NCBI GenBank assembly: GCA_025966005.1
Contig: JAOPVV010000056.1
Location: 1-39,693 of the forward strand
DNA: 39,693 nt
DNA from: Frankiales bacterium
GTDB taxonomy: Bacteria > Actinomycetota > Actinomycetes > Mycobacteriales > SCTD01
Reading direction: 5' to 3'
A model generated the notes under the pieces. That model ran no database searches and was not told the DNA's origin. It saw nothing but the letters and a program-made list of their open reading frames with translations. Of the stretch, positions 3,782-37,988 are shown one piece after another (position 1 is the stretch's first letter; each line of letters starts with the position of its first letter). The translations under genes were made by a program, and so were the position numbers.

Positions 3782-6523
3782 TCACGTGGCCAGCAGGGCC
3801 GCGCGTCCGGCCTCGAGCCGGGCGACGGGGACCCGGAAGGGGCTGCAGCTGACGTAGTGCAAGCCGGCGGCGTGGAAGAAGTGGACGCTCTCGGGGTCCC
3901 CGCCGTGCTCGCCGCAGACGCCGATCTTCAGGTCCGGCTTGGTGGCGCGTCCCTCATGCGTGGCGATCCGCACGAGCCTGCCGATGCCGTCGGGGTCGAT
4001 GGACTCGAAGGGGCTGACGCCGAACACCCCGAGCTCGAGGTAGCGGCTGAAGAACGAGGCCTCGACGTCGTCGCGGCTGAAGCCGTAGCCCATCTGCGTC
4101 AGGTCGTTCGTGCCGAACGAGAAGAAGTCGGCGCTCTCGGCGATCTGGCCCGCGGTGAGGGCCGCCCGCGGGATCTCGATCATGGTGCCGATCGGGACGT
4201 CGACCGGCTGACCGGTCTGCGCCGCGACCTCGTCGACGATGCGCCGACACTCCTCCCGGACGATCTCCAGCTCCTGGACGGCGGCGACCAGCGGGACCAT
4301 CACCTCGGGCCGGGGGTCCAGCCCCTCGCTGCGCAGCTGCCCGGCCGCCTCGGCCAGCGCCCGGACCTGCACCGCGAACAGCCCCGGGATGACGAGGCCG
4401 AGCCGCACGCCGCGCAGCCCGATCATCGGGTTGGACTCGTGCAGCCGCCGGACGGCGGCGAGCAGGTCGCGCCGCTTGCCGTCGACGAGCCGGCCGCTCG
4501 CCTCCGCGACGGCCACCTCCACCGAGAGCTCGACGAGGTCGGGCAGGAACTCGTGCAGCGGCGGGTCCAGCAGTCGGACCGTCACCGGCAGACCGTCCAT
4601 GGCCCGCAGGATGCCGGCGAAGTCCTCGCGCTGCAGCGGGAGCAGCGCGGCCAGCGCCGCCTCCTGGGCCTGCGGGCCGTCGGCGAGCACGAGGTCCTCG
4701 ACCAGCTGGCGTCGCTCCCCGAGGAACATGTGCTCGGTGCGGCACAGCCCGATGCCCTGCGCCCCGAACCGGCGTGCCCGCTCGGCGTCCTGCGGGGTGT
4801 CGGCGTTCGTCCGGACCCCCAGCCGGCGGGCCGTGTCGGCGTGGCCCATCAGCCGGTGCACCGCGGCGACGAGCTCGCCGCCGTCCGCCGGGTCCAGACT
4901 GCCCTCGAAGTACTCCACCACCGGCGACAGCGTCACCGGCACCTCACCGGCGTAAACGTCCCCGGTCGTGCCGTCGATCGACACGACGTCACCCTCGCGG
5001 AGCACCGTCCCGTCGGGGGTGGTGACCGTCTGGGCGGTCAGGTCGACGTCGAGCTCCTCCGCTCCGCACACGCAGGTCTTGCCCATCCCGCGCGCCACCA
5101 CCGCTGCGTGGGAGGTCTTGCCGCCACGGCTGGTGAGGACGCCCTGGGCGGCGATCATCCCGGACAGGTCGTCGGGGTTGGTCTCCCTGCGCACCAGCAC
5201 GACCGCCTCACCGCGGGCCGCCCAGGCCACCGCCGTGCCGCTGTCGAAGACCACCTTCCCCACTGCGGCACCGGGGCTCGCGCCCATCCCCGTGGTCAGC
5301 CTGGGGACGCCGGCGGTCTCGACGAAGCGGGGGAACATCAGCTGCATCAGCTGCGCCCCGCTGACCCGGCCCAGGGCCTCGTCCAGGGAGATCAGGCCCT
5401 CGTCGACCAGCTGGGTGGCGATCCGGAACGCCGCGCCGGCCGTCCGCTTGCCGACCCGGGTCTGCAAAATCCAGAGCTTGCCGCGCTCGATCGTGAACTC
5501 GATGTCGCACAGGTCCCGGTAGTGCCGCTCCAACGTCGTCATGATCGTCAGCAGCTCGTCATAGGAGCTCTTGTCGAGCCCCTCGAGGTCGGTCAGCGGC
5601 AGGGTGTTGCGGATCCCCGCGACGACGTCCTCCCCCTGGGCGTTGGACAGGTAGTCGCCGTACACGCCCGGGGCACCGCTGCCGGGGTCGCGGGTGAAGC
5701 AGACGCCGGTTCCCGAGTCCTCACCGAGGTTGCCGAACACCATCGAGCAGACGTTCACCGCGGTGCCCAGGTCCGCCGGGATGCGCTCCTGCCGGCGGTA
5801 GAGCCGGGCCCGGTCGCCGTTCCACGAGTCGAACACCGCCCGCACCGCCAGCTCGAGCTGCACCCTCGGGTCCTGCGGGAACGGCGCGCCCGTGCGGTCA
5901 GCGACGATGCGCAGGAACTCGGCCACCAGCGCCCGCAGGTCGTCCGCGTCCAGCTGGACGTCCGAGCGGACGCCCTTGGCCTGCTTCGCCGCCTCGAGGG
6001 CGTGCTCGAACGGGTCCCCCTCCACGCCGAGGACGGTCCTGCCGAACATCTGCAGCAGCCGGCGGTAGGAGTCCCAGGCGAACCGCTCGTTCCCGGACTG
6101 CCGCGCCAGACCCAGGACCGACGCGTCGTTCAGGCCGATGTTCAGGACCGTGTCCATCATCCCGGGCATCGAGAACCGCGCTCCCGAACGGACGCTCACG
6201 AGCAGCGGGTCGGCGGGGTCCCCGAGGCGCTTGCCCATCTGCTCCTGCAGCCGCGCGAGGTGCACGTCCACCTCCGCGGCCAGCGCCGAGGGGACGTCGC
6301 CGGTCTCCAGGTAGACCCGGCACGCCTCCGTCGTGATCACGAACCCGGGCGGCACCGGGAGGCCCAGCCGCGTCATCTCCGCCAGGTTCGCCCCCTTGCC
6401 TCCGAGCAGGTCCTTCATCTCCTGGCCACCCTCGGTGAAGCCGAACACGAGCTTCGCGACGGGTGGCTGGGCACCGGTCTCGTCGGCCGACACGTCCGGG
6501 CGGGTGGCTGCTGCGGTGGTCAT
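3782..6523 (-). CDS. ppdK: Pyruvate, phosphate dikinase
   Basis: The 913-aa ORF carries the ATP-grasp motifs GGKGANLAEM, SVRSGARFSMPGMMDT and ILQTRVGKRT. It has the phospho-His motif GGKTSHAAVVARGMG. The PEP/pyruvate barrel motifs GLCRTEHMF, RLLDPPLHEFLP, FSFGTNDLTQ and CGEHGGDP are all present. GAGGAG precedes the ATG. Confidence 0.95.
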   Translation of the reverse strand: MTTAAATRPDVSADETGAQPPVAKLVFGFTEGGQEMKDLLGGKGANLAEMTRLGLPVPPGFVITTEACRVYLETGDVPSALAAEVDVHLARLQEQMGKRLGDPADPLLVSVRSGARFSMPGMMDTVLNIGLNDASVLGLARQSGNERFAWDSYRRLLQMFGRTVLGVEGDPFEHALEAAKQAKGVRSDVQLDADDLRALVAEFLRIVADRTGAPFPQDPRVQLELAVRAVFDSWNGDRARLYRRQERIPADLGTAVNVCSMVFGNLGEDSGTGVCFTRDPGSGAPGVYGDYLSNAQGEDVVAGIRNTLPLTDLEGLDKSSYDELLTIMTTLERHYRDLCDIEFTIERGKLWILQTRVGKRTAGAAFRIATQLVDEGLISLDEALGRVSGAQLMQLMFPRFVETAGVPRLTTGMGASPGAAVGKVVFDSGTAVAWAARGEAVVLVRRETNPDDLSGMIAAQGVLTSRGGKTSHAAVVARGMGKTCVCGAEELDVDLTAQTVTTPDGTVLREGDVVSIDGTTGDVYAGEVPVTLSPVVEYFEGSLDPADGGELVAAVHRLMGHADTARRLGVRTNADTPQDAERARRFGAQGIGLCRTEHMFLGERRQLVEDLVLADGPQAQEAALAALLPLQREDFAGILRAMDGLPVTVRLLDPPLHEFLPDLVELSVEVAVAEASGRLVDGKRRDLLAAVRRLHESNPMIGLRGVRLGLVIPGLFAVQVRALAEAAGQLRSEGLDPRPEVMVPLVAAVQELEIVREECRRIVDEVAAQTGQPVDVPIGTMIEIPRAALTAGQIAESADFFSFGTNDLTQMGYGFSRDDVEASFFSRYLELGVFGVSPFESIDPDGIGRLVRIATHEGRATKPDLKIGVCGEHGGDPESVHFFHAAGLHYVSCSPFRVPVARLEAGRAALLAT

Positions 6524-6708
6524 GGCGCTCCTCGGTGGGTGGCGGCGCGGGGGGAGGGAGGGTCAGGTGAGCGGACGGACCGGGTGGCGGCCCCGGCGAC
6601 GCCGTCCACCGCCTGCGCTGCCTGGACGACGGCCCGCGGCCGGAGGACGGCGGGAGCAGGGGCCGGTGGCTGGAGCACGGGGCCTCCCGGGGCGGCAGGA
6701 GTTCTTAC

Positions 6709-6739: not shown

Positions 6740-6866
6740 GTCAGCCCCCCGCTCCGAGCGTCGGCGCGACGGTGGCCGTGGACGGCGGCACGCCACCACC
6801 GGCACTTACTTGACATGAAGTCGAGTTGCGAGCCGCATCGGAGGACCTGGGGGACACCCCAGTTTC

Positions 6867-6895
6867 TTGACGGACACTCCGCTTACGGAGACTAT
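6867..6895 (+). promoter_or_regulatory. Candidate promoter P2: TTGACG-N17-GACTAT upstream of the 6980 operon
   Basis: The -35 lies inside the 13-mer AGTTTCTTGACGG (6861-6873), which recurs exactly at 19918-19930. The -10 keeps the A2 and T6 positions. Confidence 0.35.
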
Positions 6896-6979
6896 GGCCC
6901 GAGTCACAGTGTGATCTCGCACGACACCCCACGACCTCTGCCCGCAGCCCGGGCGAGGGCGCCCACGAGGAGCAGCCAG

Positions 6980-7605
6980 ATGACGAACTCCGCCGGAGCC
7001 GCCGAGCTCGACGACGTCACCCGCGAGGCCCTGGTCGGGCTCGTGATCCGAGGGATGCACCGCGGCGCCCTGTCCCCCGAGCAGCAGGCCCTGGTCGACC
7101 AGGGCCTGGCGATGGCCAAGGGCCCGATGGTGATGCCGACGCCCGCCGGAACGGCGGCGGCCCAGGCGGTCACGCGGCTGGCCGCGGGCGGTGACGAGGA
7201 GAAGTCGCTGCGTCCGCTGTTCGAGAAGTTCCTCCCGGTCAACCACCAGCTCCGCGACCTCTGCACGGCGTGGCAGCTGCGGCCGGACGGCACGCCCAAC
7301 GACCACAGCGACGCGGCCTACGACGCCTCCGTCCGGGACCGCCTCGACGACATCGACGACGCCATCGGCCGGATCCTGCGCCGCATGTCGGAGGTCACCC
7401 CCCGGCTGTCGCACTACCGGGACCACCTGAGCGCGTCGCTGGAGAGGTTTGACGACGGGGACGCCGGCATGCTCACCAGCCCGCTCGCCGACAGCTACCA
7501 CACGGTGTGGATGTGGCTGCACCAGGAGCTGCTCCTGATGCTGGGCATCAGCCGGGCCGAGGACGAGAAGCTCGAGGCCGAACTCGTCGCCGGTCAGAAG
7601 GTCTG

Positions 7606-7606
<1 letters not shown>
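6980..7606 (+). CDS. Hypothetical helical protein (208 aa), translationally coupled to the PPDK paralogue
   Basis: ATG 6980 is preceded by GAGGAG (6966-6971). The stop TGA 7604-7606 shares its A with the ATG 7606 of the next gene (TGATG). There is no recognisable catalytic motif. Confidence 0.7.
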
Positions 7607-10127
<2,521 letters not shown>

Positions 10128-10131
<4 letters not shown>

Positions 10132-16904: not shown

Positions 16905-16907
16905 GGG

Positions 16908-21553: not shown

Positions 21554-22150
21554 ATGACCGAGCTCCTGCTCATCCGCCACGCCCTGCCCGTCTCCGGCGT
21601 CCAGACCCCGGGCCTGTCGGAGGTGGGGGTCGAGCAGGCCCGCCGCCTCGGCACCTGGCTCAAGGGCGAGGAGGTCGACGCGCTCGTCACCAGCCCGATG
21701 CGGCGGGCGGTGGAGACAGGGCAGATCATCGCGGAGCAGATGGGCCGCGGGATCGACGCCACCGTCGACGACCTGCGCGAGTGGGACACCGACCTCCCGC
21801 CGGCGGCGTACGTGGCGGTGGAGGAGATGGGTCCCATGGACCCGCGGGCCATCGCGATGGCCGAGGGCCGGTACGACGACTTCGTCCCGAACCTCGACCG
21901 CGACGCGTTCCGGGCCCGGGTCGCCCGCGCCCTCGACGAGGTCTTCGACCGGTGGCCCGTCACCAGGGTCGCGGCCGTCTGCCACGGCGGCATGCTCAAC
22001 GCCGCGATCGGTGGCGTCCTCGAGGTGCCGGCGCTGTTCTGGTGCAACCCGGGCTACACGTCGGTGTCCCGGCTGCGGCGGGTACCGGGCGGGCGCACGG
22101 TGGTGGTGTCGGTCAACGAGACCGCGCACCTGTTCGCGTCGAGGGACTGA
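21554..22150 (+). CDS. Histidine phosphatase (phosphoglycerate-mutase-like) family protein
   Basis: The product starts MTELLLIRHALP (RHG-type motif with the catalytic His) and has a distal CHGGML. The start lies 28 nt after the synthetase stop, with a GGAAGG RBS. Confidence 0.83.
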   Translation: MTELLLIRHALPVSGVQTPGLSEVGVEQARRLGTWLKGEEVDALVTSPMRRAVETGQIIAEQMGRGIDATVDDLREWDTDLPPAAYVAVEEMGPMDPRAIAMAEGRYDDFVPNLDRDAFRARVARALDEVFDRWPVTRVAAVCHGGMLNAAIGGVLEVPALFWCNPGYTSVSRLRRVPGGRTVVVSVNETAHLFASRD

Positions 22151-28061: not shown

Positions 28062-28517
28062 TCATGCCGAGGCGACGCGCGCCGCCGCCACGGCCAGCAT
28101 CCCCTCGTCCCCCTCCCGCCACGTGACCGTGAGGGTCACGCCGGCGATCACCCGCTCGCCGTCGTCACCCCGGCGCACCCGGTGCTCGTAGCTGCCCCCG
28201 AGCGTGTAGCGCGCGCCGTCGAGGAAGTGGTCGGCCCGCATGCTCGTGCGCACGACCACCTCGCCCGCGTCCCGCTGCAGCCAGGCGTTGGCCAGCAGGT
28301 GCTGGGTCGCGTCCAGGCCGGGGAAGAGCCTGCGGCCCCGCTCCACCCACGCGTCGGCCGTCGTGCGGCCGACCGACCCCGGCCGGTAGGAGGGGTAGTC
28401 GACGTCGACGTCGTCGGCGAACACCGAGCGGTAGAGGGCCCAGTCCCGGCCGTCGATGCCGTGGGCGAAGCGGGCCAGCAGGTCGAGGACCTGCGCCCGG
28501 TCCTGCGGGTCCGTCAC
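28062..28517 (-). CDS. NTF2/SnoaL-like (SnoaL_4-type) protein
   Basis: GTG 28515-28517 overlaps the upstream stop (GTGA). The product contains VLDLLARFAHGIDGRDW and LDATQHLLAN. It is paralogous to the 38281 gene. Confidence 0.75.
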   Translation of the reverse strand: MTDPQDRAQVLDLLARFAHGIDGRDWALYRSVFADDVDVDYPSYRPGSVGRTTADAWVERGRRLFPGLDATQHLLANAWLQRDAGEVVVRTSMRADHFLDGARYTLGGSYEHRVRRGDDGERVIAGVTLTVTWREGDEGMLAVAAARVASA

Positions 28518-30256
28518 CCCGTCAGGGCCGGGACCGCCGCGACGGTGACCGTGCCCGCGGTGCCGTCCACCGTCAGGAGCATGCCGTCGGTGAGGACGGC
28601 CGTGGCGCCGGTGACGGACAGGACGCAGGGCAGGCCCACCTCCCGGGAGACGACCACCGCATGGCTGTTGAGCGCGCCCATGTCGACGACGACAGCACCC
28701 GCGACGAGGAACAGCGGGGTCCACGCCGCGTCGGTGAGCGGTGCGACCAGGACGTCCCCGGGCTCGAGGGCGACGGCGTCCGCGAGGTCCTTGATGACGC
28801 GCGCCGGGCCCGTGTAGCTGCCGGCGCTGCCACCGACACCCGTGAGGACCGTCCCCTCGGCCGCCGCGGCCTCGCGGTCGCGCGCGCGCCGCTTCCACTG
28901 CGTCAGCGGGGGGAGGTCCGCGGCGATGATGAACGGCGGCTCGACCTCGAACAGCGACCGGTAGCCGGCGAGCCGCTCGACGATGACGTCGGTGAAGGCG
29001 GCCGGGTCGGCGACGTACCGGTCGAGCTCGTCGGCCAGCAGCATCATGACGTCCTCGGGCTCGCTGAGCCGGCCCGCCTCGACACCCCGGCGGCCCAGCT
29101 CGCGCAGCGCCAGCCGCACCTCGTTGACGACGACGACGGCGTTGGCCTTGGTCTGCTCGCGCAGCGGGATGGTGTCCTTCGCCGAGCGCAGGCCCAGCTC
29201 GAGGGTCGCGAGCTTCGCCTCGTCCCCGCCGATCGCCTGCTGCAGCTCCTCGGCGGCGGCCCTGCGCCGCGCCGTCAGGCGCTCGGCACGCGACGTGGGC
29301 GAGCCGTCGTCGGCGCTGTGCCGCAGCGTGTCCACGTGGGCCAGCGCCTGGACCGGGTCGGCGTCCCACGACCGGGCGCGGACGTCCCACTCGTTCGGGC
29401 CGCGCATGCCGTACTCGGACAGGAAGCCGTCGAAGGCCCAGCGCAAGTGCGCCAGGTCGCCGCCCTCCGCGCCGGGCAGGGCTGCGGCCACCGCCGCGGC
29501 GCCCTGGTCGAACAGCGCGCTCAGCTCCTCCGACCCGTTGACGGTGCGCGACAGGTCCCACAGCCCGGACGACGGCGAGGCCGACTCCACGTCACCGAGG
29601 CCGGAGATGAGGTCGAGGAGTAGCTCGGGGCGACCGGCGTCGGCGCACAGCTGCGCCACCATCGCCTGCCCGACCGTGGAGGCGAGGGAGGAGTAGTCGT
29701 GGCGTGCGAAGGCGTTGTCCAGCTCCCCGAGGAACGAGCGTGCGTGCGCCACCAGCTGGGCCTCGGTCAGCGCCGACAGGTCGGGCCGGTCGCGACGGAG
29801 CGCCCGGACCCGCAGGGCGTCCTCGTCGATCTCCTGGAACTCCGTGCGCTGCAGGACGTCGCCGATGGTGGCGGCCGACCGCTCGCTGCACGCCGGGTCC
29901 AGGTCGTCCGGGTGCGGCTCGTACGGCGGGGCGTCGGGGTGCGACCCGAGCAGCGCGGCGTCGAACTGCTCCACAGTCATGCCCATCCGCAGGCCCATGA
30001 GGCGCATGTGCGACAGGTTCAGGTAGAAGTAGCCGCCGAAGAGCCCCGCGACCGGCGGCGGGTCGTCGGGCAGCTCCCCCTCGGCGTAGACGCCGAACTC
30101 GACGAAGCCGCGCAGCCACCCCTTGAGCAGCCCCTGCTCGAAGACCAGCGACCAGCCGAGCGGGCTGCACGGGTCGGGCAGCACCTCACCGGCGTTCGCG
30201 CGGGTGTAGTACGGCAGCCGGTCCCAGCGCTGCGAGTCGGTGATCCATCGGTCCAC
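28514..30256 (-). CDS. PEP-utilising-enzyme mobile (swivel phospho-His) domain protein, RPH/PEP-synthase-like, lacking an ATP-grasp domain
   Basis: The 580-aa product has a C-terminal swivel domain (GPARVIKDL..GDVLVAPLTDAAWTPLF..AVVVDMGALNSHAVVVSREVGLPCV). The N-terminal roughly 450 aa is helical, begins RANAGEVLPDPCSPLGWS, and has no GGKGxNL-type motif. Confidence 0.85.
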   Translation of the reverse strand: MDRWITDSQRWDRLPYYTRANAGEVLPDPCSPLGWSLVFEQGLLKGWLRGFVEFGVYAEGELPDDPPPVAGLFGGYFYLNLSHMRLMGLRMGMTVEQFDAALLGSHPDAPPYEPHPDDLDPACSERSAATIGDVLQRTEFQEIDEDALRVRALRRDRPDLSALTEAQLVAHARSFLGELDNAFARHDYSSLASTVGQAMVAQLCADAGRPELLLDLISGLGDVESASPSSGLWDLSRTVNGSEELSALFDQGAAAVAAALPGAEGGDLAHLRWAFDGFLSEYGMRGPNEWDVRARSWDADPVQALAHVDTLRHSADDGSPTSRAERLTARRRAAAEELQQAIGGDEAKLATLELGLRSAKDTIPLREQTKANAVVVVNEVRLALRELGRRGVEAGRLSEPEDVMMLLADELDRYVADPAAFTDVIVERLAGYRSLFEVEPPFIIAADLPPLTQWKRRARDREAAAAEGTVLTGVGGSAGSYTGPARVIKDLADAVALEPGDVLVAPLTDAAWTPLFLVAGAVVVDMGALNSHAVVVSREVGLPCVLSVTGATAVLTDGMLLTVDGTAGTVTVAAVPALTG

Positions 30257-30304
30257 AGGTCGTTCCTCTCGTGCCGTGCAGGCGGGATCCGGGAAGGAGG
30301 GGGC

Positions 30305-31171
30305 TCACCAGGGCGACGTGCCGCCGTCGACGTTGATGAGCGCCCCGGTCACACCACCGCCGTGCTCGCTGGCGAGCCAGACCGCCGCGGCGGCGACCTC
30401 CTCGACCGTGTTGAGGCGCTTGATCATCGACTCGTCGGCGTAGCCCTGCAGGAACGCCTCGTAGGTGCTCCCCATGGCCTTGGCGGCCGCGGGGCCCGCG
30501 GCCTTCATGAGGTCGGTCTCGACCGCGCCGGGGCAGATGGCGTTGCAGGTGATGCCCTGCTGCGCGTACTCGAAGGCGACGGCCTTCGTGAGGCCGTTGA
30601 TCGCGTGCTTGTTGGTGATGTAGTGGCTGACGGCCGGCTTGTTGGCCATCTTGCCCTCGACCGAGGAGATGTTGATGACGCGGCCCCAGCCGCCCTCGGT
30701 CATGTAGCGCAGCGCGCGGCGCGTCCCCCAGAAGTAGCTGTTCAGGTTCCAGTCGAGGGCCTTCTGCCAGGCCTCGTCGGAGAGGTCGCCCACCAGCGCC
30801 CAGCCGTCGGTCCCACCGACGTTGTTCACGATGATGTCGAGCCGGCCGTAGCGCTCGTACGTGAAGTCGACCAGGGCCTCGACCTGGTCCTGCTTGAGGG
30901 CGTCGCAGACCAGGAAGTCGGCGCGCTCGCCCGCGCCCATCTCCGCGAGCGCCTCCTTGCCCTTGTCCTCGGAGCGGCCGCTGACGACCACCGAGGCCCC
31001 TTCGTCGAGGAACGCCTCCGCGATGCCACGGCCGATGCTGCGCGTGCTTGCCGTGATGACCGCGACCCGACCCTCGAGCTTGGGGGGCCGGGCCCGGACC
31101 CGGGTGGCGAGCGCGTCGCCGGCGACGCCGCTCGAGATCTCGTCGACGTCCGTGGTACCGCCTCCGCTCAT
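30305..31171 (-). CDS. SDR family oxidoreductase
   Basis: ATG 31169-31171 follows GAGGAGGG. The product contains GRVAVITASTRSIGRGIA and YITNKHAINGLTK. It is paralogous to the 25112 gene. Confidence 0.88.
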   Translation of the reverse strand: MSGGGTTDVDEISSGVAGDALATRVRARPPKLEGRVAVITASTRSIGRGIAEAFLDEGASVVVSGRSEDKGKEALAEMGAGERADFLVCDALKQDQVEALVDFTYERYGRLDIIVNNVGGTDGWALVGDLSDEAWQKALDWNLNSYFWGTRRALRYMTEGGWGRVINISSVEGKMANKPAVSHYITNKHAINGLTKAVAFEYAQQGITCNAICPGAVETDLMKAAGPAAAKAMGSTYEAFLQGYADESMIKRLNTVEEVAAAAVWLASEHGGGVTGALINVDGGTSPW

Positions 31172-31229
31172 CAGGTGCCCTCCTCTGTCGCTCGCCCCTG
31201 GCCGGTGTGACCCGCGCCATTGCTCTCGG

Positions 31230-31258
31230 ATCCTTATCGAAACAGCAGGACGAGTCAA
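31230..31258 (-). promoter_or_regulatory. Candidate internal promoter TTGACT-N17-AAGGAT ahead of the SDR gene
   Basis: Read on the minus strand. The -35 hexamer lies inside the 16-mer GTCAAGTAAGTGCCGG (31254-31269, plus strand) and overlaps the P450 stop codon. Confidence 0.35.
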
Positions 31259-32436
31259 GTAAGTGCCGGCGGGCTGGACGCCCGGCCGTGCACGGCGACC
31301 GGCAGGTGGGCGATGCCGCGCAGGACGAAGCAGCAAAGACGCGGCCTCCGTCCGGGCCAGGACGTCGCCCACGCAGGGGTGGATGCCCTGTCCGAAGGCC
31401 AGGTGCTGGCGCTGGTCCGGCCGTCCGGGCCGGAACTCGTCCGGGTCCGCGAAGACCGTCGCGTCGCGGTTCGCCGAGCCGAAGGCCAGGAAGACGACCG
31501 CGCCCTCGGGCAGGTCGACCCGGGCGAGCGTGGTCGGGCGGGTGACCCCCGGAACATCCCCTGGGCCGGGCTCGCCAGCCGGAGGCCCTCCTCGACCACG
31601 GCCGCGACCCGGGACGGGTCGTCGCGCAGCCGCGCCCACTCGTCGGGCCGCTCACTGAGCCGCAGCACGAGGTCGGTCACCAGCGTGGTCGTCGTCTCGT
31701 TCCCGGCGACGACCAGCTCGCGCACCAGCCACACCAGCTCGACGTCGGTGAGCGCCCCCTCCTCCGGGTGCGGCGCCACCAGGCTGCTCAGCAGGTCGTC
31801 GGCCGGCTGCTCCCGTCGGCGACCGAGCTCCTCCACGATCCGCTGCTGGTAGTCCAGGTCGTCCCGCGCGACCTGCAGCCACCGCTCGGGGGGCATCGCC
31901 GAGGCGCCGAGCGAGGCGGTGGCCGCGTCGGACCAGCGCGCGACGTCGTCGCGCCAGGAGTCGGGCAGCCCGAGGATGCGCGAGATCGTCCAGATCGGGA
32001 GCGGCCGCGCCAGCGAGGCGACGGCGTCGACGGTCCCGTGCTGCGGCAGTGCCGCGGCCAGCTCGCCCGCCGCTGCCACGACCTGCGGCTCCATCCAGCG
32101 CAGGGACCGCGCCGTGAAGGCCCGGGCGACGAGCTTGCGGTACCGCGTGTGGGCCGGGGGGTCGTTGAGACCGAGGGCCGGCAGGTAGGGCAGGCCCTCG
32201 GCGCGGATCGCCGCCACCTCGTCGGCGACCTCGGGCGGCGGAGCGGTCCGGCGACCCGTGTGCACGGCGTTGGAGTACGTCTCCGGGTCCCGCAGGACCT
32301 CGCGGACCAGGGCCATCGTCGTGACCATCCAGAACCCGTGGTCGGCGACCTGGGCGACCGGCGCGGACGCCCGCAGCGCGGCGTAGACCGGGTGGGGGTC
32401 CTGCTGGAACGCGACGGCGTACGGGTCGACGGGCAC
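31255..32436 (-). pseudogene. Cytochrome P450, apparently disrupted: the heme-Cys loop is encoded out of frame and the C-terminus is shortened
   Basis: The frame starting at 32436 gives P450 hallmarks (AGNETTT I-helix, EEGLR ExxR) up to ..SPAQGMFRG. The continuation VTRPTTLARVDLPEGAVVFLAFGSANRD...FGQGIHPCVGDVLARTE is found only in the other frame (ORF 30305..31639). The switch occurs at a C5/G5 run at 31545-31549. The tail VLRGIAHLPVAV is back in the first frame. Confidence 0.6.
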
Positions 32437-32447
32437 CGTGCCCGTGC

Positions 32448-33641
32448 TCAGCCGAGCTGCTCCGCGATGGCGCGGTGGAAGTGCTGCACGCCCGGCTCGT
32501 TGCGGCCGAACACGAACTCCTGCTCGGCCATCGCGGCGAGACCTCGCTGGATCGCGAAGCCCGCCCCGTAGTCCTCGTCGAGCACGACGTCGTGGAACCA
32601 GTCGCGGGTGTGGTCGGCGGCCTTGCGCTCCTGGTCGTCAGCCGGCTCGTGCCGCAGCAGGATGTGCTGCTCGGTGCGAGAGCTGTCCCAGGTGCTGCCC
32701 GGGAGCACGAACGACACCGCGACCTGCTCGCGCCACCCGCCGGCGATCGCCAACCCGGGGAACAGCCAGTAGATGGCTCCGACGCAGGTCGTCGGGTCCC
32801 GCTCCTCCTCCGGTGCCTCGGCGGCCTCCGCGATGGCCCGCAGCGCGAAGGCGTTGCGCTGGTGCGGGCCCCAGCTGTCGAAGGCGGCCATGTTGGACAG
32901 GTTGGTCCGGAAGACGGTCGTGCGGTGCAGCGAGGCGAAGTGGTAGCCCTCCAGGTAGCCGTCGACGACGACCTTCCAGTTCGGGCCCTCGAGGATGCGG
33001 GTGGAGTGGTGGTAGCAGCTCGCCAGGTCGAGCGCGCCGAGCAACTCGAGCAGCTCGGGTCCGAGCCAGGTGTCGAGGTCGAGCTCCGCCGTGCGGTCCA
33101 GCGACACGAACACGATCCCGGCCCGTTCGTCGACCGGCAGCGTCAGCAGGCCCATCGCGCCCTTGTCCACCGGGCCGAACGTCTCCTCGCCGTAGACACC
33201 GGTGAGGCAGCCGGCCAGGTCGTACGACCAGGCGTGGTAGGGGCACGTGAAGCGGCGGGTGGTGCCCGTGCCCTCCGGCACGAGCTCCCCTCCGCGGTGC
33301 CGGCAGGCGTTCACGACGGCGCGCAGCGAGCCGTCGCGCTGGCGCGTGATGATGACCGGCATGCCGACGGCGTCGACGGCCTTGTAGCTGCCGGCGGCCG
33401 GGAGCTCGCACGACAGCGCCAGGGGCAGCGGGACCGTGCGGTGCACCGCCTGCAGCTCCCGCTCCCACAGCTGCGGGTCCTGGTAGTTGGCGACCGGTTC
33501 GCGCCACTGCTCCGGCACCATGTCCGTCGAGGTCGCCCGGTAGTGGTCGACCAGGCGCGCCATGACGTCGTAGGCGTCCTTGCGCACCACGTCGCTCGAG
33601 AAGCGGACGCCCGAGGCGTAGCGAGGGGTGGTGGCGGTCAT
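32448..33641 (-). CDS. Rieske [2Fe-2S] non-heme-iron oxygenase, alpha subunit (no beta subunit nearby)
   Basis: The Rieske motif is CRHRGGELV...CPYHAWSY. The mononuclear iron motif is DGYLEGYHFASLH. Confidence 0.9.
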   Translation of the reverse strand: MTATTPRYASGVRFSSDVVRKDAYDVMARLVDHYRATSTDMVPEQWREPVANYQDPQLWERELQAVHRTVPLPLALSCELPAAGSYKAVDAVGMPVIITRQRDGSLRAVVNACRHRGGELVPEGTGTTRRFTCPYHAWSYDLAGCLTGVYGEETFGPVDKGAMGLLTLPVDERAGIVFVSLDRTAELDLDTWLGPELLELLGALDLASCYHHSTRILEGPNWKVVVDGYLEGYHFASLHRTTVFRTNLSNMAAFDSWGPHQRNAFALRAIAEAAEAPEEERDPTTCVGAIYWLFPGLAIAGGWREQVAVSFVLPGSTWDSSRTEQHILLRHEPADDQERKAADHTRDWFHDVVLDEDYGAGFAIQRGLAAMAEQEFVFGRNEPGVQHFHRAIAEQLG

Positions 33642-33653
33642 GCGGTCCTCCGG

Positions 33654-33989
33654 TCAGGCGGGGGTGGGGGCCGATCCCATGGGCCGGGAGACGGCGACGG
33701 TCGAGTGGGTCATCGACCGGCCGGTGCGGGTGAGCGGGGCGATCGCCTCGCGCAGCCGAGCGACGTGCGGCAGGGTCAGGTGCGCGGTCAGCGACGCGTC
33801 GCTGTCCCAGTGCTCGAAGACGCGGACGCGGCCTGGCAGGTCCGGGTCCGGCGCGAACGAGTAGTCGAGGCACCCGGGCTCCTGGCGCGTCGCGGCGACG
33901 ACCTGCGAGAAGTGGCGCAACGCCTGCTCGCGGTCCTCCGGCGTGAAGTCCATCCAGCCGAAAATGACCACCTCCGCGTCGTCGCTCAT
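33654..33989 (-). CDS. Antibiotic-biosynthesis-monooxygenase (ABM)/dimeric alpha-beta-barrel family protein
   Basis: ATG 33987-33989 overlaps the upstream stop (ATGA). The 111-aa product contains VVIFGWMDFTPEDREQAL..EPGCLDYSF..VFEHWDSDASLTAH. Confidence 0.68.
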   Translation of the reverse strand: MSDDAEVVIFGWMDFTPEDREQALRHFSQVVAATRQEPGCLDYSFAPDPDLPGRVRVFEHWDSDASLTAHLTLPHVARLREAIAPLTRTGRSMTHSTVAVSRPMGSAPTPA

Positions 33990-35116
33990 GCGTCGAGCAT
34001 CTGCTGCACGACCGAGTGGAAGTGCGTGATCTTGCACTCGTGGTCGTTGAAGCGGTTAGTGGTGTAGGCGGACGACCTGCGGGCCGCGCTGACCTCGTTG
34101 TAGATCTCGACGTCCTCGGAGACGACGACCTTCAGCCGCTCCCAGTGCCTGGTGACCGCGTCGAGGTACTCGACGTCGCCCTGCGGGTCGTACTGCAGCT
34201 CCCACGTCTCGAAGCGGGTGCGGTCGACCGCGAGCGGTACCGCCCGGAAGAGCTGGATGTGGCTCGGGTTGTTGTTGAACACCGACGTCGGGAACACCGT
34301 GTAGTGGCAGATCGCCAGGCTCTGGTGGTCGCGGGTCTCCTTCAGCTTGGGCAGCACCCCCTTGTACGGCACGACCATCATCCCGTGGGGCCCGAACCAC
34401 GCGAACGTGCTCTCGCGGCCGTCCTTGGCGTCCTGCGCCGACACCTTGTGCAGGGCGGGCGCGTGGTAGTTCTCGTTGAAGCCGTCGATGACGACCTTCC
34501 AGTTGACCTCGAGCTCCCAGGTCAGCTTGTCGATGAGGAGCATGTCCTGCATGCGGTAGACCCCGAGGTCCTGCACCAGGTCCTCGCCCAGGAACTCCAG
34601 GAGGGGCGGGGCGACGCCGGGACCGGCGAGGACGGCCCAGACCCAGCCGCCCCACTCGTCGCACTCCACCGGGGGCGAGGCCAGACCGTCGACCTGCGCC
34701 GCGCAGAAGTCCTCGCGGTCCGGGACGCCGATGACGTTGCCCTCGTGGTCGTAGGTCCAGTTGTGCCAGCGGCACGCGAAGCGCCGAGCGCCCTTGCCGG
34801 ACTCCTTGACGATGCGCGCGCCGCGGTGCATGCAGACGTTGTGGAAGCCGGCCACACCGCCGTCGCGACGGCGGGTGACGACGATGGTCTCGCCGTGCCC
34901 CTCCCACACCACGTGGTCGCCGGGCGCCTCGATCTCCGACGAGCGGCAGATGATCTGCCAGCTGCGGTTGAGGACCTTCGTGCGCTCGAGCTCGAAGCGC
35001 TCGGGGTCCAGGTAGACCGACACGTCGAGGTCGGAGGGCTCCGCGCCCTCGGGCAGCAGCGGCACGCCCTCACCGTGCCGGAGAGGTGCGTCTCCTCGGG
35101 TCGGGACGAAGACCAC
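33986..35116 (-). CDS. Rieske [2Fe-2S] non-heme-iron oxygenase, alpha subunit
   Basis: The Rieske motif is CMHRGARIV...CRWHNWTY. The iron motif is DGFNENYHAPALH. I prefer GTG 35116 (5 nt after AGGAGG) over the TTG at 35185, which lies inside the putative promoter. Confidence 0.86.
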   Translation of the reverse strand: MVFVPTRGDAPLRHGEGVPLLPEGAEPSDLDVSVYLDPERFELERTKVLNRSWQIICRSSEIEAPGDHVVWEGHGETIVVTRRRDGGVAGFHNVCMHRGARIVKESGKGARRFACRWHNWTYDHEGNVIGVPDREDFCAAQVDGLASPPVECDEWGGWVWAVLAGPGVAPPLLEFLGEDLVQDLGVYRMQDMLLIDKLTWELEVNWKVVIDGFNENYHAPALHKVSAQDAKDGRESTFAWFGPHGMMVVPYKGVLPKLKETRDHQSLAICHYTVFPTSVFNNNPSHIQLFRAVPLAVDRTRFETWELQYDPQGDVEYLDAVTRHWERLKVVVSEDVEIYNEVSAARRSSAYTTNRFNDHECKITHFHSVVQQMLDA

Positions 35117-35173
35117 GGGACCTCCTGGGAGCGCGTCGGGAGCGGCAGGTCGAGCGACGTGACGTTGCGCGCG

Positions 35174-35202
35174 AGCGTCGCTCAATGCGGAGACGGAGTC
35201 AA
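35174..35202 (-). promoter_or_regulatory. Candidate internal promoter TTGACT-N17-GACGCT
   Basis: Read on the minus strand. ACTTGACTC is shared with the 31230..31258 element and directly abuts the TAA stop of the upstream gene. Confidence 0.33.
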
Positions 35203-35203
35203 G

Positions 35204-36226
35204 TTACTGCGGCTGCGGTGACTCCTCCTCCAGCAGCCGGCGCACGATCGAGTGGGCCTTGACCGAGGCGATGTCGGCGGCGGCGTTGACCGGACGGGGG
35301 GCGCCGTCACGGTCGAGGGTCGCCTGGATCGCCTCGAGCAGCGGCTGGTCCTCGAGCATCGTGCGCTCGTGGACGCGCCGCAGGCTCTCCGAGGCGAGGG
35401 CGTCGTCGGTGGCGTAGTCCCGCGCGACCTGCCAGAGCACCCGCGTGGTCGACCCGTCGACCGGTGTGAAGGCCCGTACGAAGACCGTCCGGTAGCTGCG
35501 CTCGGGGCCCACGATCTCCATGTGGTCGACGTGCAGCGCCGGCGAGACGAACACGCCCGACTCCCGCTGGACGCACAGCACGTCCGGCGGCAGGCCGGTC
35601 GCCGCGCTCTGCCAGGCGGTCAGCGGTCCGGCGGGGAAGTCGCGTGCGTACGAGACCGACGTCTCCGAGACCTCCACCTTCAGCGGCGGCTCGGCCTCGA
35701 GGTAGCCGCGGTGCGCGGTGTCCGGGTGGACGAACGCGAAGTGCGTCCGGTCCAGGGCGTTCTCGTGCAGGAGCAGGTAGCCGCTCGCCACCGTCAGCTC
35801 GCCGCCGAGCGAGGACCAGGCCGGGTCCTCCAGCCACGGCATCCGCGGCACGGCCGACCCGGCCGACCGCCGCGGGTTGCCCAGCCACACCCACACGTAC
35901 GTCCCTGCCTCGCGCACCGGGTAGCTCGCGACGCGCGCGCCGAACGGCACGTTGTCCTGCGACGGCACGTCGACGCAGGCACCCGTCGCGTCGTAGGCGA
36001 AGCCGTGGTAGCGGCAGACGACCCGGTCCGCGACCAGGCTGCCCATCGACAGCGGTAGCGCGCGGTGCGCGCAGCGGTCCTCGAGCGCGACGACGGTGCC
36101 GGCGCCGTCGCGGTAGAGCAGGACCTGCCGACCCAGCAGCCTGCGGCTGGTGAGCTCGCTCCCGACGTCCGCGGCCGACGCCGCGACGTACCAGCAGTCG
36201 AGCGGGTAGTCGCGGGCCGCGCTCAC
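35204..36226 (-). CDS. Rieske oxygenase, VanA/phthalate-family (class IA) oxygenase component
   Basis: A GTG start overlaps the reductase stop (GTGA). The product contains CWYVAASAADV, the Rieske motif CAHRALPLS...CRYHGFAY, and the iron motif NALDRTHFAFVH. Confidence 0.88.
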   Translation of the reverse strand: MSAARDYPLDCWYVAASAADVGSELTSRRLLGRQVLLYRDGAGTVVALEDRCAHRALPLSMGSLVADRVVCRYHGFAYDATGACVDVPSQDNVPFGARVASYPVREAGTYVWVWLGNPRRSAGSAVPRMPWLEDPAWSSLGGELTVASGYLLLHENALDRTHFAFVHPDTAHRGYLEAEPPLKVEVSETSVSYARDFPAGPLTAWQSAATGLPPDVLCVQRESGVFVSPALHVDHMEIVGPERSYRTVFVRAFTPVDGSTTRVLWQVARDYATDDALASESLRRVHERTMLEDQPLLEAIQATLDRDGAPRPVNAAADIASVKAHSIVRRLLEEESPQPQ

Positions 36227-37203
36227 AGGTCCAGCACCAGACGGGGGCCGTTCGCACGGGACACGCAGATCATCATGAAGTCACCAGCCGCCTTCTCGTC
36301 CTCGCTGAGCAACGAGTCCCGGTGGTCCGGCTCGCCCTCGACCACCGCCGTCTCGCAGGTCCCGCAGACGCCCTCGAGGCAGGACGACAGCGCCGGGACC
36401 CCTGCGTCCTGCACGACCTCGAGGATCGACCGGTCCTCGGGCACGGTGACCGTGATGCCGGACCGCTGGCAGATGACCTCGAACGACGTGGACACCGCCG
36501 CGGAGTCCACCGGCTTGGCGGAGAACCGCTCGACGTGCAGGCTCCCGGCGGGCCAGGCGGCGCACCGCCCCTCCACCGCCTGCAGCAGCCCCTCCGGTCC
36601 GCAGGTGTACACCAGCGCGTCCGGCTGCGGGCGACCGAGGATCCCGTCGAGGTCGAGCATCCCCCGCTCGTCCTCCGGCCAGACGACGACGCGGTCGCCG
36701 TACGCGGCGAGCTCGTCGAGGAAGCCCATCGACGCACGGGTGCGGCCGCCGTAGGACAGCGTCCACTGCGCGCCGGCGGCGTCGGCCTCCGCGATCATCG
36801 GGAGCAGCGGCGTGATTCCGATGCCCCCCGCCACGAAGACGTAGGTCGGCGCGCCGACCAGGGGGAAGTTGTTGCGCGGCCCGCGCACGGACAGCCGGCT
36901 CCGGGGCGCCAGGGCCTCGTGGACGTGCCTGGACCCGCCGCGGCTGGCGGGGTCGAGCAGCACGCCGATCCGCCAGGAGGAGCGGTCGGACGGCGAGCCG
37001 CACAGCGAGTACTGCCGGGTCAGCTCCGGGGTCAGCAGCAGGTCGACGTGCGCCCCGGGGGTCCAGGCCGGCAGCTCGCCGCCGTCGGGGGCGGCGAGGA
37101 GCAGGCTGATGACGCCGTCCGCCACGTCGGTGCGCGAGACCACCTCGAGCTCGCTGACGTGCTCGGTGTAGACGGTGGTGATCGCCGTGGAGGACGCCGT
37201 CAT
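36223..37203 (-). CDS. PDR/VanB-family oxidoreductase (FMN/NAD-binding reductase with a C-terminal plant-type [2Fe-2S] ferredoxin)
   Basis: ATG 37201-37203 overlaps the upstream stop (ATGA). The product contains RQYSL, VAGGIGITPLL and the C-terminal cluster motif CLEGVCGTCET. Confidence 0.9.
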   Translation of the reverse strand: MTASSTAITTVYTEHVSELEVVSRTDVADGVISLLLAAPDGGELPAWTPGAHVDLLLTPELTRQYSLCGSPSDRSSWRIGVLLDPASRGGSRHVHEALAPRSRLSVRGPRNNFPLVGAPTYVFVAGGIGITPLLPMIAEADAAGAQWTLSYGGRTRASMGFLDELAAYGDRVVVWPEDERGMLDLDGILGRPQPDALVYTCGPEGLLQAVEGRCAAWPAGSLHVERFSAKPVDSAAVSTSFEVICQRSGITVTVPEDRSILEVVQDAGVPALSSCLEGVCGTCETAVVEGEPDHRDSLLSEDEKAAGDFMMICVSRANGPRLVLDL

Positions 37204-37988
37204 CGCTTGTCCAGCCCGCACTCCTCGGACACGCGGTAGCAGCGGGCGACGCCCCACCACGGGTCCTGGACGACCGCCCGCACCGCCGGCCGCGCCAGCC
37301 ACTGCTCAGCCCAGTCGGCGTGGTCGGCGTAGACCTCGACGAAGGCCTGGGCCGCGGTGGAGGGCAGCAGCCGGCGCAGCGGGCGCTGCCCGGGCTCGTC
37401 GACCGGCTCGGTCTCGGCCTCGCCCAGGACGCGGTCGACGAGCACCTGGCGGAGCCCGAAGGCGCCCTCCGCCTGCTCGGCCAGGACCTCGATCTGCTGG
37501 TCGAGGTGCCTGTCGCCCTCGTCCGGTGTCGTCGCCGGCCGCCGCTCGAGCTCGACGACGTGCTTCGACAGCCCGGTCTGCCCGCTCAGCCGGTCGAGCA
37601 GCACCTGCTCGCGCACCCGGAAGGACCGCAGGTCCCTCAGGCAGCTGCGGTGGTCCTGCACGATCCGCTCGTGGAGCTCCTCCGGCAGGTCCAGGGACCG
37701 GCCGGGCAGGAACCGCATCGCGATGTAGCGGTAGGCCCGCGGTCGCTGCCTCCACCCGCCTCCGAGGTCGAGCTCGGCCGTGGCGCGGGCGGTGTGGTAG
37801 CTGACGACCTGGTCCATCTCGCGCAGGAAGCGGCGCGCGAACGGGGCGTGGACCTCCCGGTAGTGCCGGTCCGACTCCTCCGTCGGCAGCGCCGCGAGCG
37901 GCGCGAAGGTCGAGAGGGTCTTGTCGTAGGGCGGCGCCTGACCGGTCAAGGTGCGTCCTCTCGTGGCGGGCTCGAGGGGACGTGCCAC
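37200..37988 (-). CDS. Hypothetical protein, possibly a tandem EthD-like/dimeric alpha-beta-barrel protein
   Basis: The 262-aa ORF has a GTG start with AAGGA upstream. The segment DRHYREVHAPFARRFL resembles the EthD-family signature. A second half of similar length is only loosely similar. Confidence 0.55.
   Translation of the reverse strand: MARPLEPATRGRTLTGQAPPYDKTLSTFAPLAALPTEESDRHYREVHAPFARRFLREMDQVVSYHTARATAELDLGGGWRQRPRAYRYIAMRFLPGRSLDLPEELHERIVQDHRSCLRDLRSFRVREQVLLDRLSGQTGLSKHVVELERRPATTPDEGDRHLDQQIEVLAEQAEGAFGLRQVLVDRVLGEAETEPVDEPGQRPLRRLLPSTAAQAFVEVYADHADWAEQWLARPAVRAVVQDPWWGVARCYRVSEECGLDKR

Follow-up and report, generated by a model that had tools for sequence, protein, structure and literature searches.

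The subject of this study is a stretch of 39,693 nucleotides from a Frankiales bacterium (contig JAOPVV010000056.1, high-GC DNA at 71-76% GC), referred to in its entirety as the window, and in particular a minus-strand gene within it, hereafter the target, whose product of 580 amino acids (aa) joins a helical acceptor-binding domain to a phospho-histidine swivel domain. The target is probably the H-type component of a split small-molecule dikinase resembling rifampin phosphotransferase (RPH), its His532 being loaded in trans by a separate donor akin to pyruvate, phosphate dikinase (PPDK), most likely a short PPDK encoded outside the contig. The argument draws on the architecture and fold of the protein, its conserved catalytic residues, the lack of an ATP-grasp domain in cis, and the genomic coupling of its relatives to PPDK-derived donors. 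The gene and its parts are as follows (PEP, phosphoenolpyruvate; RPH-Lm, the Listeria RPH).

28514..30256, minus strand: target gene, H-type component (acceptor-binding domain like the rifampin-binding domain of RPH, plus phospho-His swivel domain), 580 aa; from open reading frame and translation, Pfam/NCBIfam, AlphaFold2 and Foldseek
28892..30256, minus strand: helical acceptor-binding domain, approximately residues 1-455, counterpart of the RPH rifampin-binding domain and containing Rph_4th; from family profile, Foldseek and N-terminal alignment
28532..28861, minus strand: PEP-utilizers swivel (mobile) domain, approximately residues 466-575, with His532; from PF00391
29147..29161, minus strand: codons of R366, E367 and K370, counterparts of RPH-Lm Arg666, Glu667 and Lys670 by alignment to 5fbs

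A Pfam search of the target returned PF00391 (PEP-utilizers) at residues 498-568 with an E value of 7.8e-19 and no other family, PF01326 being among those not matched, and the precomputed database annotation of its family lists PF27448 (Rph_4th) together with PF00391. The catalytic His532 lies within the motif MGALNSHAVVVSRE (codon 28661-28663), in the swivel motif GALNSHAVVVSRE, and this His is conserved in 50 of 52 diverse family members sharing 31-80% identity with the target. An AlphaFold2 model built from the same 52 members (pLDDT 93.8, pTM 0.93) found a sole full-length match in the PDB when searched with Foldseek, namely RPH-Lm (5fbt/5fbu), with a query-normalised TM-score of 0.72 and an E value of 2.6e-22 (5fbt) over 601 columns at 19% identity. 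Searching the PDB with the single sequence aligned target residues 264-571 with residues 563-864 of the Listeria enzyme, while the family profile extended the match to positions 160-576 against RPH-Lm 452-866 (5fbs, E 9e-63). The initial annotation, made from the sequence alone, had described an RPH-like protein composed of substrate-binding and swivel-His domains, and the model, the Pfam match and His532 all agree with it.

Mutagenesis of RPH-Lm showed that the second phosphotransfer, in which phospho-His825 passes its phosphate to rifampin, cannot do without the Arg666-Glu667 pair, and Lys670 belongs to the same hydrogen-bond network (PMC4844700). Their counterparts in the 52 family members are nearly invariant, with R366 present in all 52, E367 in 51, and position 370 occupied by Lys in 45 and by Arg in the other 7. 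The target shares with RPH-Lm (5FBS, 5FBT, 5FBU, 5HV1) a helical acceptor domain followed by a C-terminal swivel His, with the Arg-Glu(-Lys) residues and the catalytic His conserved, but RPH-Lm bears an N-terminal ATP-grasp of approximately 314 residues on the same chain, and the two proteins are only about 19% identical. Against the rph equivalog model NF041857, the target scores 135.9 bits where the cut-off is 999; and whereas RPH belongs to an antibiotic resistance context, the target is found in an oxygenase and beta-oxidation cluster. NCBIfam as a whole yielded only partial, sub-threshold matches, confined to the C-terminal two-thirds of the RedH, PigC, RPH and PRK06241 'PEP synthase' models.

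The N-terminus of the target falls where the ATP-grasp of longer relatives comes to an end (loci and proteins of the survey are given as L and P numbers). P0148, a full-length relative of 1,490 aa, has its PPDK_N domain at residues 18-323, and target residues 10-36 align with its residues 346-372, just past that domain, the N-terminal motif PYYTRANAGEVLPDPCSPLGW corresponding to residues 346-366; the target therefore begins at the very boundary that closes the ATP-grasp in full-length relatives. It is 31% identical across its whole length to each of the two modules of P0148. Judged from sequence and model, the target consists of an acceptor-binding domain and a phospho-His carrier domain with phosphotransfer residues intact and has no means of its own to load the His from a nucleotide.

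The reading frame offers no room for a missing N-terminus. Translation starts at a GTG codon with GAGAGGAA, by sequence a good ribosome-binding site, 7-8 nt 5' of it, and the stop-to-stop frame ends at 30304, only 16 codons further, where it is closed by the TGA of the upstream short-chain dehydrogenase/reductase (SDR) gene. A longer upstream frame or a frameshift restoring an ATP-grasp domain, which had been raised as one outcome that would unmake the proposal, was looked for and ruled out by this TGA, by the presence of the ribosome-binding site and by a negative profile search. The latter employed a PPDK_N profile built from five ATP-grasp domains and run on the six-frame open reading frames of the window, where it matched only the two PPDK-type genes, at 3782-6562 and 7453-10131. 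As a control, the profile detected every full-length PEP synthase or RPH-like gene in loci from a metagenome scan by swivel-domain pattern, in which about 60 of 80 loci held generic PEP synthases or full-length RPH-like genes and were used as positive controls only. Since the profile hits only those two genes in the window and recovered all control loci, the factual parts of the initial annotation hold, including its statements that the protein has no nucleotide-binding N-terminus and that no stand-alone PPDK_N/ATP-grasp gene is present in the window.

The closest relatives of the target come from the Geodermatophilaceae (Geodermatophilus, Trujillonella and Blastococcus) at 80-81% protein identity. 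Homologues at 63-89% identity, among the best 120 listed, measure 557-595 aa and carry the same two Pfam families. In a representative library of 1.84 billion cluster representatives, the target matched 24,469 entries at E <1e-3 and 1,017 at E <1e-30; the best 150 matches are nearly all about 575-590 aa long and align from the first ten residues. In all, more than 150 homologues, reaching down to approximately 32% identity, share the starting residue of the target. The two-domain architecture without ATP-grasp is both old and stable. Proteins of the target type go by the names of rifampicin phosphotransferase or pyruvate, water dikinase in databases, and neither name is backed by the domain evidence as read from sequence.

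Split enzymes of this kind are not without precedent. HpeI is an ATP-grasp protein of approximately 40 kDa whose crystal structure shows homology to RPH's ATP-grasp, and HpeH corresponds to the rifampin-binding and swivel domains, its His581 mutant being inactive; CreHI and PpsAB (phenylphosphate synthase) are homologous two-component systems, and the two genes are adjacent in all of them (Dexter et al. 2025, PMC12167813). PpsAB, CreHI, HpeHI and AcvAB resemble the target in having an acceptor-binding and swivel protein (PpsA, CreH, HpeH) with ATP binding placed on another polypeptide, in their swivel-His catalysis, and in their catabolic contexts. They differ in that PpsAB, CreHI and HpeHI possess an adjacent ATP-grasp-only partner of about 40 kDa and none is adjacent in the sampled neighbourhoods of the target, the relatives of which associate instead with a short PPDK carrying its own swivel His; the comparison is with the published descriptions of these systems, whose components PpsA, CreH and HpeH share about 45% identity in pairs. 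The NCBIfam PRK08296 models (~600 aa), which we presume to represent PpsA-like proteins, match the target in the swivel domain only.

The target is accordingly not a new kind of enzyme, but a member of the RPH-like dikinase superfamily whose split has characterised precedents, and the novelty that the initial annotation implied for a swivel-His protein without ATP-grasp does not stand. Given the characterised Hpe, Cre and Pps systems, the idea of a swivel His served in trans is mechanistically sound but not new as a principle. A characterised split family does exist, as the same annotation had allowed for, yet the subfamily of the target is distinct from it and has no adjacent ATP-grasp-only partner. 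What sets the target apart is a large uncharacterised subfamily with a non-adjacent donor in the sampled neighbourhoods, a short-PPDK donor class, and a possible PEP-dependent version in the window. It was not until 2025 that the split RPH-like dikinases gained recognition as a subfamily, and then just for enzymes acting on phenolic substrates and having their ATP-grasp subunit next door; the branch of the target, with 1,017 clusters at the stricter threshold above, is far larger and uncharacterised. More remote kin are PEP synthase, PPDK and Enzyme I of the phosphotransferase system (PTS), which share the swivel phospho-His domain with the target over a similarity confined to some 100 residues; unlike PEP synthase and PPDK, the target has neither the PEP/pyruvate TIM barrel (PEP-utilizers_C) nor the nucleotide-binding domain (PPDK_N).

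Fusions and linkage among relatives point, as far as sequences go, to the short PPDK as the donor class. The term denotes proteins of approximately 460-580 aa with a PPDK_N ATP-grasp and their own swivel His but no PEP/pyruvate domain (NCBIfam NF004531/PRK05878). In P0180 (L096), an H module of the target subfamily, 37% identical over its full length, is joined in one chain to a short PPDK, whose NF004531 score of 472 bits exceeds the cut-off of 456 and whose match to PPDK stops at position 524 of 865. P0148, P0234 and P0253 run in the order ATP-grasp, acceptor domain, swivel, acceptor domain, swivel, so that one nucleotide-binding domain is joined to two H modules. In L030 and L033, a short-PPDK gene lies immediately upstream of an H-type gene (protein 28-29% identical to the target) and scores 511 and 572 bits on NF004531 despite ending at the contig edge; in L033, its stop overlaps the H-type start. 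To our knowledge, no earlier description pairs H-type proteins with a short PPDK that carries a swivel His of its own.

Plasmids provide further examples. On plasmid pA of Rhodococcus pyridinivorans (L098), an H-type gene 42% identical to the target is found 7 kb from a 495-aa 'pyruvate, phosphate dikinase', in a cluster that also contains a P450, dehydrogenases, an APH-type phosphotransferase and an F420-dependent luciferase-like monooxygenase (LLM). H-type proteins with the PF27448 and PF00391 architecture also occur in L096, L098 and L099. Relatives of the target are present on 9 of 72,556 plasmids, and when the short PPDK of pA was used as the query, seven of these nine were among its 11 best matches in the same collection, at identities of at least 45%. 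The distances from H-type gene to short PPDK are listed below.

Mycobacterium branderi pJCM12687: 0.6 kb
Rhodococcus sp. LW-XY12 pLW3: 3.4 kb
Rhodococcus pyridinivorans pA: 7 kb
Three Rhodococcus megaplasmids: 24-35 kb
Rhodococcus opacus VOC-14: 745 kb

Among the plasmids reached through the short PPDK, a 'PEP-utilizing enzyme' is encoded 0.65 kb from it in Diaphorobacter and 2.2 kb from it in M. avium, and Rieske and APH genes are often near such pairs. No full H-type gene was present in the examined flanks of the short PPDK in Novosphingobium resinovorum and Rhodococcus oxybenzonivorans, the latter having other split PEP-utilizing genes. The cluster on the Rhodococcus ZPP plasmid comprises two H-types, histidine phosphatases, genes for E1 alpha and beta, AMP-ligases, an LLM, a P450, an NTF2 protein and acyl-CoA dehydrogenases (ACADs). 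The accessory gene described below and the short PPDK lie 25-35 kb away from these H-types, a spacing similar to the 18 kb that separate the target from a PPDK paralogue in the window.

Several observations weigh against a short PPDK as the donor. Identity to the target is no more than 27-33% for the plasmid H-types nearest to short PPDKs (L101-L104), and such a donor already has its own swivel His yet must charge a second one. No short-PPDK or ATP-grasp-only donor gene was detected by the PPDK_N profile in the 39.7-kb window. The neighbourhoods of family members were likewise negative: in 23 independent ones (members 37-87% identical, found by lookup or scan and not via the plasmid search; L001-L006, L009, L011-L023 and L025, being 21 loci whose flanks total 255 kb, together with L092 and L093), there was no ATP-grasp gene in any of the 23, for which reason donor linkage is to be regarded as the exception in the subfamily of the target. 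A phosphoryl source supplied in trans, as the initial annotation had proposed, is nonetheless the best reading of a protein with conserved phosphotransfer residues and no ATP-grasp in cis.

The phosphotransfer itself, the identity of the donor in the source organism and the acceptor are what we infer in the following scheme. The donor would be phosphorylated on its own swivel His, from ATP in the case of a short PPDK or from PEP in the case of the paralogue, and would then charge His532 of the target, unless the ATP-grasp of the donor acts on His532 directly. The swivel domain would dock on the helical domain, where R366, E367 and K370 would hold the phosphate for attack by an oxygen of the bound acceptor. 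The latter is envisaged as hydrophobic and oxygenated, probably an alcohol or enol made by the neighbouring Rieske and P450 oxygenases and the upstream SDR. A hydroxyl or enol on a bulky hydrophobic intermediate is suggested because of the upstream SDR (which shares the target's frame and in some relatives forms one protein with the H module), the oxygenases, and genes of side-chain beta-oxidation type, the last including Thiolase_C_1, an OB_ChsH2_C-like protein, ACADs and a CoA ligase. The resulting phosphate ester might be a trapped intermediate, later cleaved by the histidine phosphatase of the cluster, or a leaving group for the coupled NTF2-like protein.

The best-surviving alternative, though a doubtful one, is that the donor is encoded within the window. 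The genes concerned are the following.

3782..6562, minus strand: canonical PPDK (TIGR01828 1,266 bits, cut-off 843), divergent from the accessory/paralogue pair; probably a housekeeping enzyme
6815..7606, plus strand: accessory open reading frame, 263 aa, its stop overlapping the paralogue start by 1 nt
7606..10131, plus strand: PPDK paralogue of the 'putative PEP-binding protein' type, candidate donor (TIGR01828 668 bits, under the cut-off of 843)

The paralogue, together with the accessory protein, would take phosphate from PEP onto its swivel His in the manner of PTS Enzyme I and pass it to the H-type protein, making the system a PEP-dependent small-molecule kinase. In alignment with maize PPDK, its ATP-grasp signatures are replaced (LGGKGANL by LGIHGDQM, and LLVSVRSGA by LLRLVASA) while the swivel motif GGLASH and those of the PEP domain remain; the nucleotide-site signatures are retained in short PPDKs and in the canonical PPDK of the window. 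The precomputed Pfam list of its family, annotated as 'putative PEP-binding protein', likewise has PF00391 and PF02896 but no PPDK_N. Should its ATP site be truly dead, the donor would be PEP-driven and Enzyme I-like; the loss of ATP binding is, on the other side, read from motifs.

The accessory gene speaks for the paralogue in having homologues next to short PPDKs. Identity is 36-44% to a gene of approximately 200 aa adjoining the short PPDKs of L101, L103, L104 and L105, and 57% to the L097 counterpart, at the positions given here.

L097, 9349-9987: accessory homologue
L101, 7584-8186: accessory homologue
L103, 5339-5959: accessory homologue
L104, 7589-8194: accessory homologue
L105, 7333-7941: accessory homologue

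On at least 13 of 17 plasmids, the accessory gene stands beside PPDK-like genes, and its neighbour, often overlapping it, is nearly always a short PPDK or the PPDK paralogue. The protein has no Pfam or NCBIfam match, some homologues giving a sub-threshold winged-helix Pfam signal at the N-terminus, and might serve as a subunit or as a regulator. What is conserved is the C-terminal stretch of approximately 120 aa, and the PGAP label is sometimes 'MarR family'.

Linkage of such a pair to an H-type gene is seen in L097, where 2.9 kb separate the accessory/paralogue pair (57% and 61% identity) from an H-type paralogue with 39% identity to the target, in a block set into the run of ACAD, thiolase, OB-fold, E2 and E1 genes that also occupies positions 10170-17927 of the window. 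The inserted segment (L097 13924-17914) consists of the 618-aa H-type paralogue, a Rieske alpha gene and an EthD gene, placed between two ACADs that are adjacent in the window. PPDK paralogue and target also share one contig in the window and probably on the 118.8-kb contig of a relative of 72% identity, the contig that includes L097, its target orthologue being P0059. Against this stand the distance of 18 kb to the target, with no such paralogue within 10 kb of a target homologue in the sampled neighbourhoods, and the sheer spread of the family, which is common in actinobacteria (Streptomyces, Rhodococcus, Frankia, Modestobacter and Geodermatophilus) and very widespread in Streptomyces and Rhodococcus. 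The gene moreover adjoins the canonical PPDK and could be a mere regulatory or metabolic paralogue. The suggestion that the PPDK paralogue might serve as donor has gained support of an indirect, contextual kind and is a live candidate by virtue of the degenerate ATP site, the accessory homology, the L097 linkage and the comparable spacing on the ZPP plasmid.

Taken more broadly, and still only tentatively, the ATP-grasp-less H-type family in oxygenase and beta-oxidation clusters may be charged by a His-to-His phosphorelay from a PPDK-derived donor, be it a short PPDK using ATP or, in the window, an ATP-blind paralogue using PEP, which would amount to a PTS-like relay ending on a hydrophobic small molecule instead of a sugar.

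A further reading, compatible with any donor model and rather unlikely in our estimation, regards phosphorylation as a passing activation step like that of RedH and PigC, in which the oxygen that receives the phosphate would be the leaving group for an elimination, cyclisation or condensation carried out by the NTF2-like, luciferase-like or nitroreductase neighbours. The best partial NCBIfam matches of the target are indeed RedH (E 1e-42) and PigC (E 5e-38) over residues 217-572, that is, across the acceptor and swivel region, and both share with it a phospho-His chemistry that activates oxygen. These prodiginine ligases are, however, full-length proteins with ATP-grasp; the target lacks a pyrrole-biosynthesis context, and its scores, restricted to the C-terminal two-thirds, are far under the cut-offs (146 against 1350 bits for RedH and 130.5 against 1300 for PigC). 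The SnoaL_4 protein coupled to the target has a fold used by dehydratases and cyclases, and the phosphatases of the cluster are not immediately beside the target, both of which favour a leaving group; the NTF2 neighbour is, for its part, inconstant among relatives. The 25-phosphosteroid lyase of Sterolibacterium was considered as an analogue of the NTF2-like protein and dropped, the paper checked saying nothing on the family of that lyase. Activation also finds an echo in the Hpe pathway, where the phosphate drives a later carboxylation, and in L107, which combines PEP-utilizing genes, a PPDK and a biotin carboxylase and whose cluster resembles the phosphorylate-then-carboxylate logic of that pathway. 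L107 (R. oxybenzonivorans pRB98, 544566-570065) contains three 'PEP-utilizing enzyme' genes (125, 542 and 183 aa) and an accessory gene overlapping a 579-aa PPDK, as well as genes for a biotin carboxyl carrier, biotin carboxylase and carboxyltransferase, followed by a thiolase, a tyrosine-type phosphatase and an APH.

It is more improbable still that the target acts without an ATP-grasp or PPDK-like partner, as a transphosphorylase or phosphomutase in which His532 takes phosphate from a phosphorylated small molecule (for instance, the product of an APH/EcKL kinase) and gives it to another hydroxyl. HpeH alone does exchange phosphate between aryl phosphates and phenols, but very slowly, at nmol per min per mg (PMC12167813), and an APH-like kinase of Sterolibacterium makes a high-energy steroid phosphoester (PMC8449060). 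Most neighbourhoods have no donor in cis, and APH/EcKL kinases recur with histidine or tyrosine-type phosphatases in the clusters of close relatives; the window, by contrast, has no APH gene, and the fusions and linkage to ATP-grasp proteins argue for an ATP-dependent partner. An APH kinase as the constant partner of the target was rejected: close relatives have one, the window and distant members do not. In L001-L003, L006, L009 and L012 (e.g., L002 4396-6660), genes for a histidine phosphatase, an APH-family kinase and a protein of 133-152 aa with no Pfam match form a triad divergent from the Rieske-Rieske-SDR-target operon, in whose vicinity Y_phosphatase3 and AP_endonuc_2 genes recur; of the phosphatase and the APH, the window has only the former.

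Finally, that the target is what truncation or a frameshift has left of a full-length RPH-like gene, or a product of misassembly, has next to no probability and is refuted by the conserved two-domain architecture, for although the contig carries disruptions (the neighbouring P450 has at least one frameshift), the SDR stop closes the frame with no ATP-grasp-like sequence upstream in any frame, the start has its good ribosome-binding site, hundreds of homologues share the length and N-terminus, and the catalytic residues are conserved in a model that is confident along the whole length.

A pair of proteins in M. tuberculosis may bear on the short-PPDK donor. PRK05878 is taken here to be the family of Rv1127c and PRK05865 that of Rv2047c, and Rv1127c is presumably a short PPDK without the PEP domain. 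PRK05865 matches target residues 366-573 and the L030 H-type protein over its whole length, so its H module is nearer to the L030 type than to the subfamily of the target, and the function of the Mtb pair is likewise putative. In Rv2047c, which is described as an epimerase/reductase domain plus a swivel 'PEP-utilizing' domain (PMC7058343, PMC2443190), the SDR is fused, while in the target the SDR is a separate gene directly upstream, in the same frame. The rv1127c and rv2047c genes are unlinked. Transposon sequencing (TnSeq) found rv1127c (ppdK), rv2047c and pks12 to be required under the same conditions (PMC7058343, Table 1), with the following calls over six conditions.

rv1127c (ppdK): NE ES GD NE NE ES
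rv2047c: NE ES ES NE NE GD
pks12 (rv2048c): NE GD GD NE NE GD

The authors noted that rv2047c encodes an epimerase domain and a PEP-utilizing domain and drew no connection between it and ppdK (PMC7058343). Rv2047c was elsewhere proposed to reduce and phosphorylate the mycoketide chain (PMC2443190). By analogy, the adjacent and fused pairs in relatives suggest that Rv1127c and Rv2047c may form one kinase system. If the target does work as proposed, there would be a testable model for Rv2047c and Rv1127c, whose mutants mycobactin poisons, and a His-to-His relay would account for the Mtb pair and for the phosphorylation step in mycoketide biosynthesis. Orphan 'short PPDK' and actinomycete 'putative PEP-binding protein' genes would gain a function, and the phosphorylation of oxygenated, hydrophobic intermediates would be a step both common and overlooked in the way actinobacteria break down lipids, terpenoids or steroid-like compounds. 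Clusters of the family hold Rieske, P450, flavin/F420 and beta-oxidation genes, and its members also occur on low-GC contigs (0.43 GC), a betaproteobacterial plasmid and a haloarchaeal plasmid.

The neighbourhoods of family members fall into two recurrent sets. The close clade (at least 60% identity) shows Rieske, Rieske and SDR genes followed by the target, along with an APH/EcKL-type kinase, a histidine phosphatase, often a second phosphatase, and SnoaL_4 genes. In the wider family, an LLM or nitroreductase gene touches the H-type gene and is accompanied by P450s and ABM proteins. Members only 38-46% identical have the LLM touching the H-type gene in L011, L013, L014, L016 and L025, and divergent from it, one small gene away, in L018 and L019; in L092 and L093, the touching gene encodes a 216-aa nitroreductase. 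The sequences suggest that the tie to flavin- or F420-dependent redox enzymes predates the tie to the NTF2 protein. A literature search on the target subfamily, alongside LLMs or Rieske proteins, found nothing. Two H-type paralogues in one cluster are frequent (L002 10001-13666; L003 10001-11737 and 15583-17307; L099 9681-11414 and 19980-21719), and tandem H-H fusions without ATP-grasp exist (P0211 and P0238). Hetero-oligomers of H-type proteins are conceivable because HpeH is reported as a dimer.

The other genes of the window that surround the target, or that recur with it, are given below.

28062..28517, minus strand: SnoaL_4/NTF2-like gene (SnoaL_4 E 3.5e-17), starting in the GTGA overlap with the target stop
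30305..31171, minus strand: SDR gene directly upstream of the target (Pfam)
31255..37302, minus strand: upstream oxygenase genes in a same-strand string (Pfam; synteny with L001, L004 and L005), comprising the next entries
31255-32436, minus strand: P450, disrupted (Pfam, frameshift)
32448-33641, minus strand: Rieske alpha (Pfam)
33654-34037, minus strand: ABM protein (Pfam)
33986-35185, minus strand: second Rieske alpha (Pfam)
35204-36226, minus strand: VanA/KshA-type Rieske (Pfam)
36223-37302, minus strand: Fer2 reductase (Pfam)
21554..22150, plus strand: histidine phosphatase (His_Phos_1), recurrent in clusters of close target relatives

The overlap of the target stop with the SnoaL/NTF2 start is as first described, and through this GTGA the SnoaL_4 gene is predicted to be translationally coupled to the target. 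The coupling, which the initial annotation had made part of its case, is real in the window but variable in relatives, an LLM or nitroreductase often taking its place; a SnoaL_4 gene follows the target directly or one gene further in L001, L004, L005 and L012. The two PPDK-type genes and the histidine phosphatase were also found as stated, the phosphatase being present in L001-L003, L006, L009 and L012 and near the short PPDK/H-type genes on the Rhodococcus ZPP plasmid.

An SDR gene is directly upstream of the target in L001-L009 and L012. In the window, SDR and target are in the same frame, separated by the SDR TGA and 16 codons (30254-30310), an arrangement expected one time in three by chance. 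SDR-H fusion proteins are known, namely P0158 (849 aa, on two contigs) and the PRK05865 family; orthology of the window SDR to the SDR domain of P0158 was rejected, their 31% identity being the generic SDR level. Of the disrupted P450, homologue residues 1-296 align in one frame (32436-31549) and residues 298-357 in another (31546-31367), including the heme motif FGQGIHPCVG, and the second frame runs stop-free into the SDR gene (30305-31651). By its sequence, the gene would be either a pseudogene or an assembly error. L001, L004 and L005 have no P450 at this position.

Positions 10170-17927 encode two ACADs (10170-11249 and 11623-12858), an SCP-x-type thiolase (Thiolase_C_1), an OB-fold ChsH2_C-like protein, and the E2, E1-beta and E1-alpha components of a 2-oxoacid dehydrogenase, with LLM, CoA ligase and ThuA genes beside the block. 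Such a set of genes is typical of the breakdown of steroid or terpenoid side chains, a hint as to what class of compound the acceptor may be.

Near the start of the window, long open reading frames without Pfam matches occupy both strands (244-2415, plus; 109-2463, minus). The first ~300 residues of the 244-2415 frame match opposite-strand DNA of L001, L004 and L005 at or near an epimerase gene that lies upstream of the APH gene, because of which the call may join two separate genes or run partly in antisense. Hypothetical proteins beside H-type/APH genes in L026, L099, L100, L107, L006 and L008 are homologues of its C-terminal ~400 residues.

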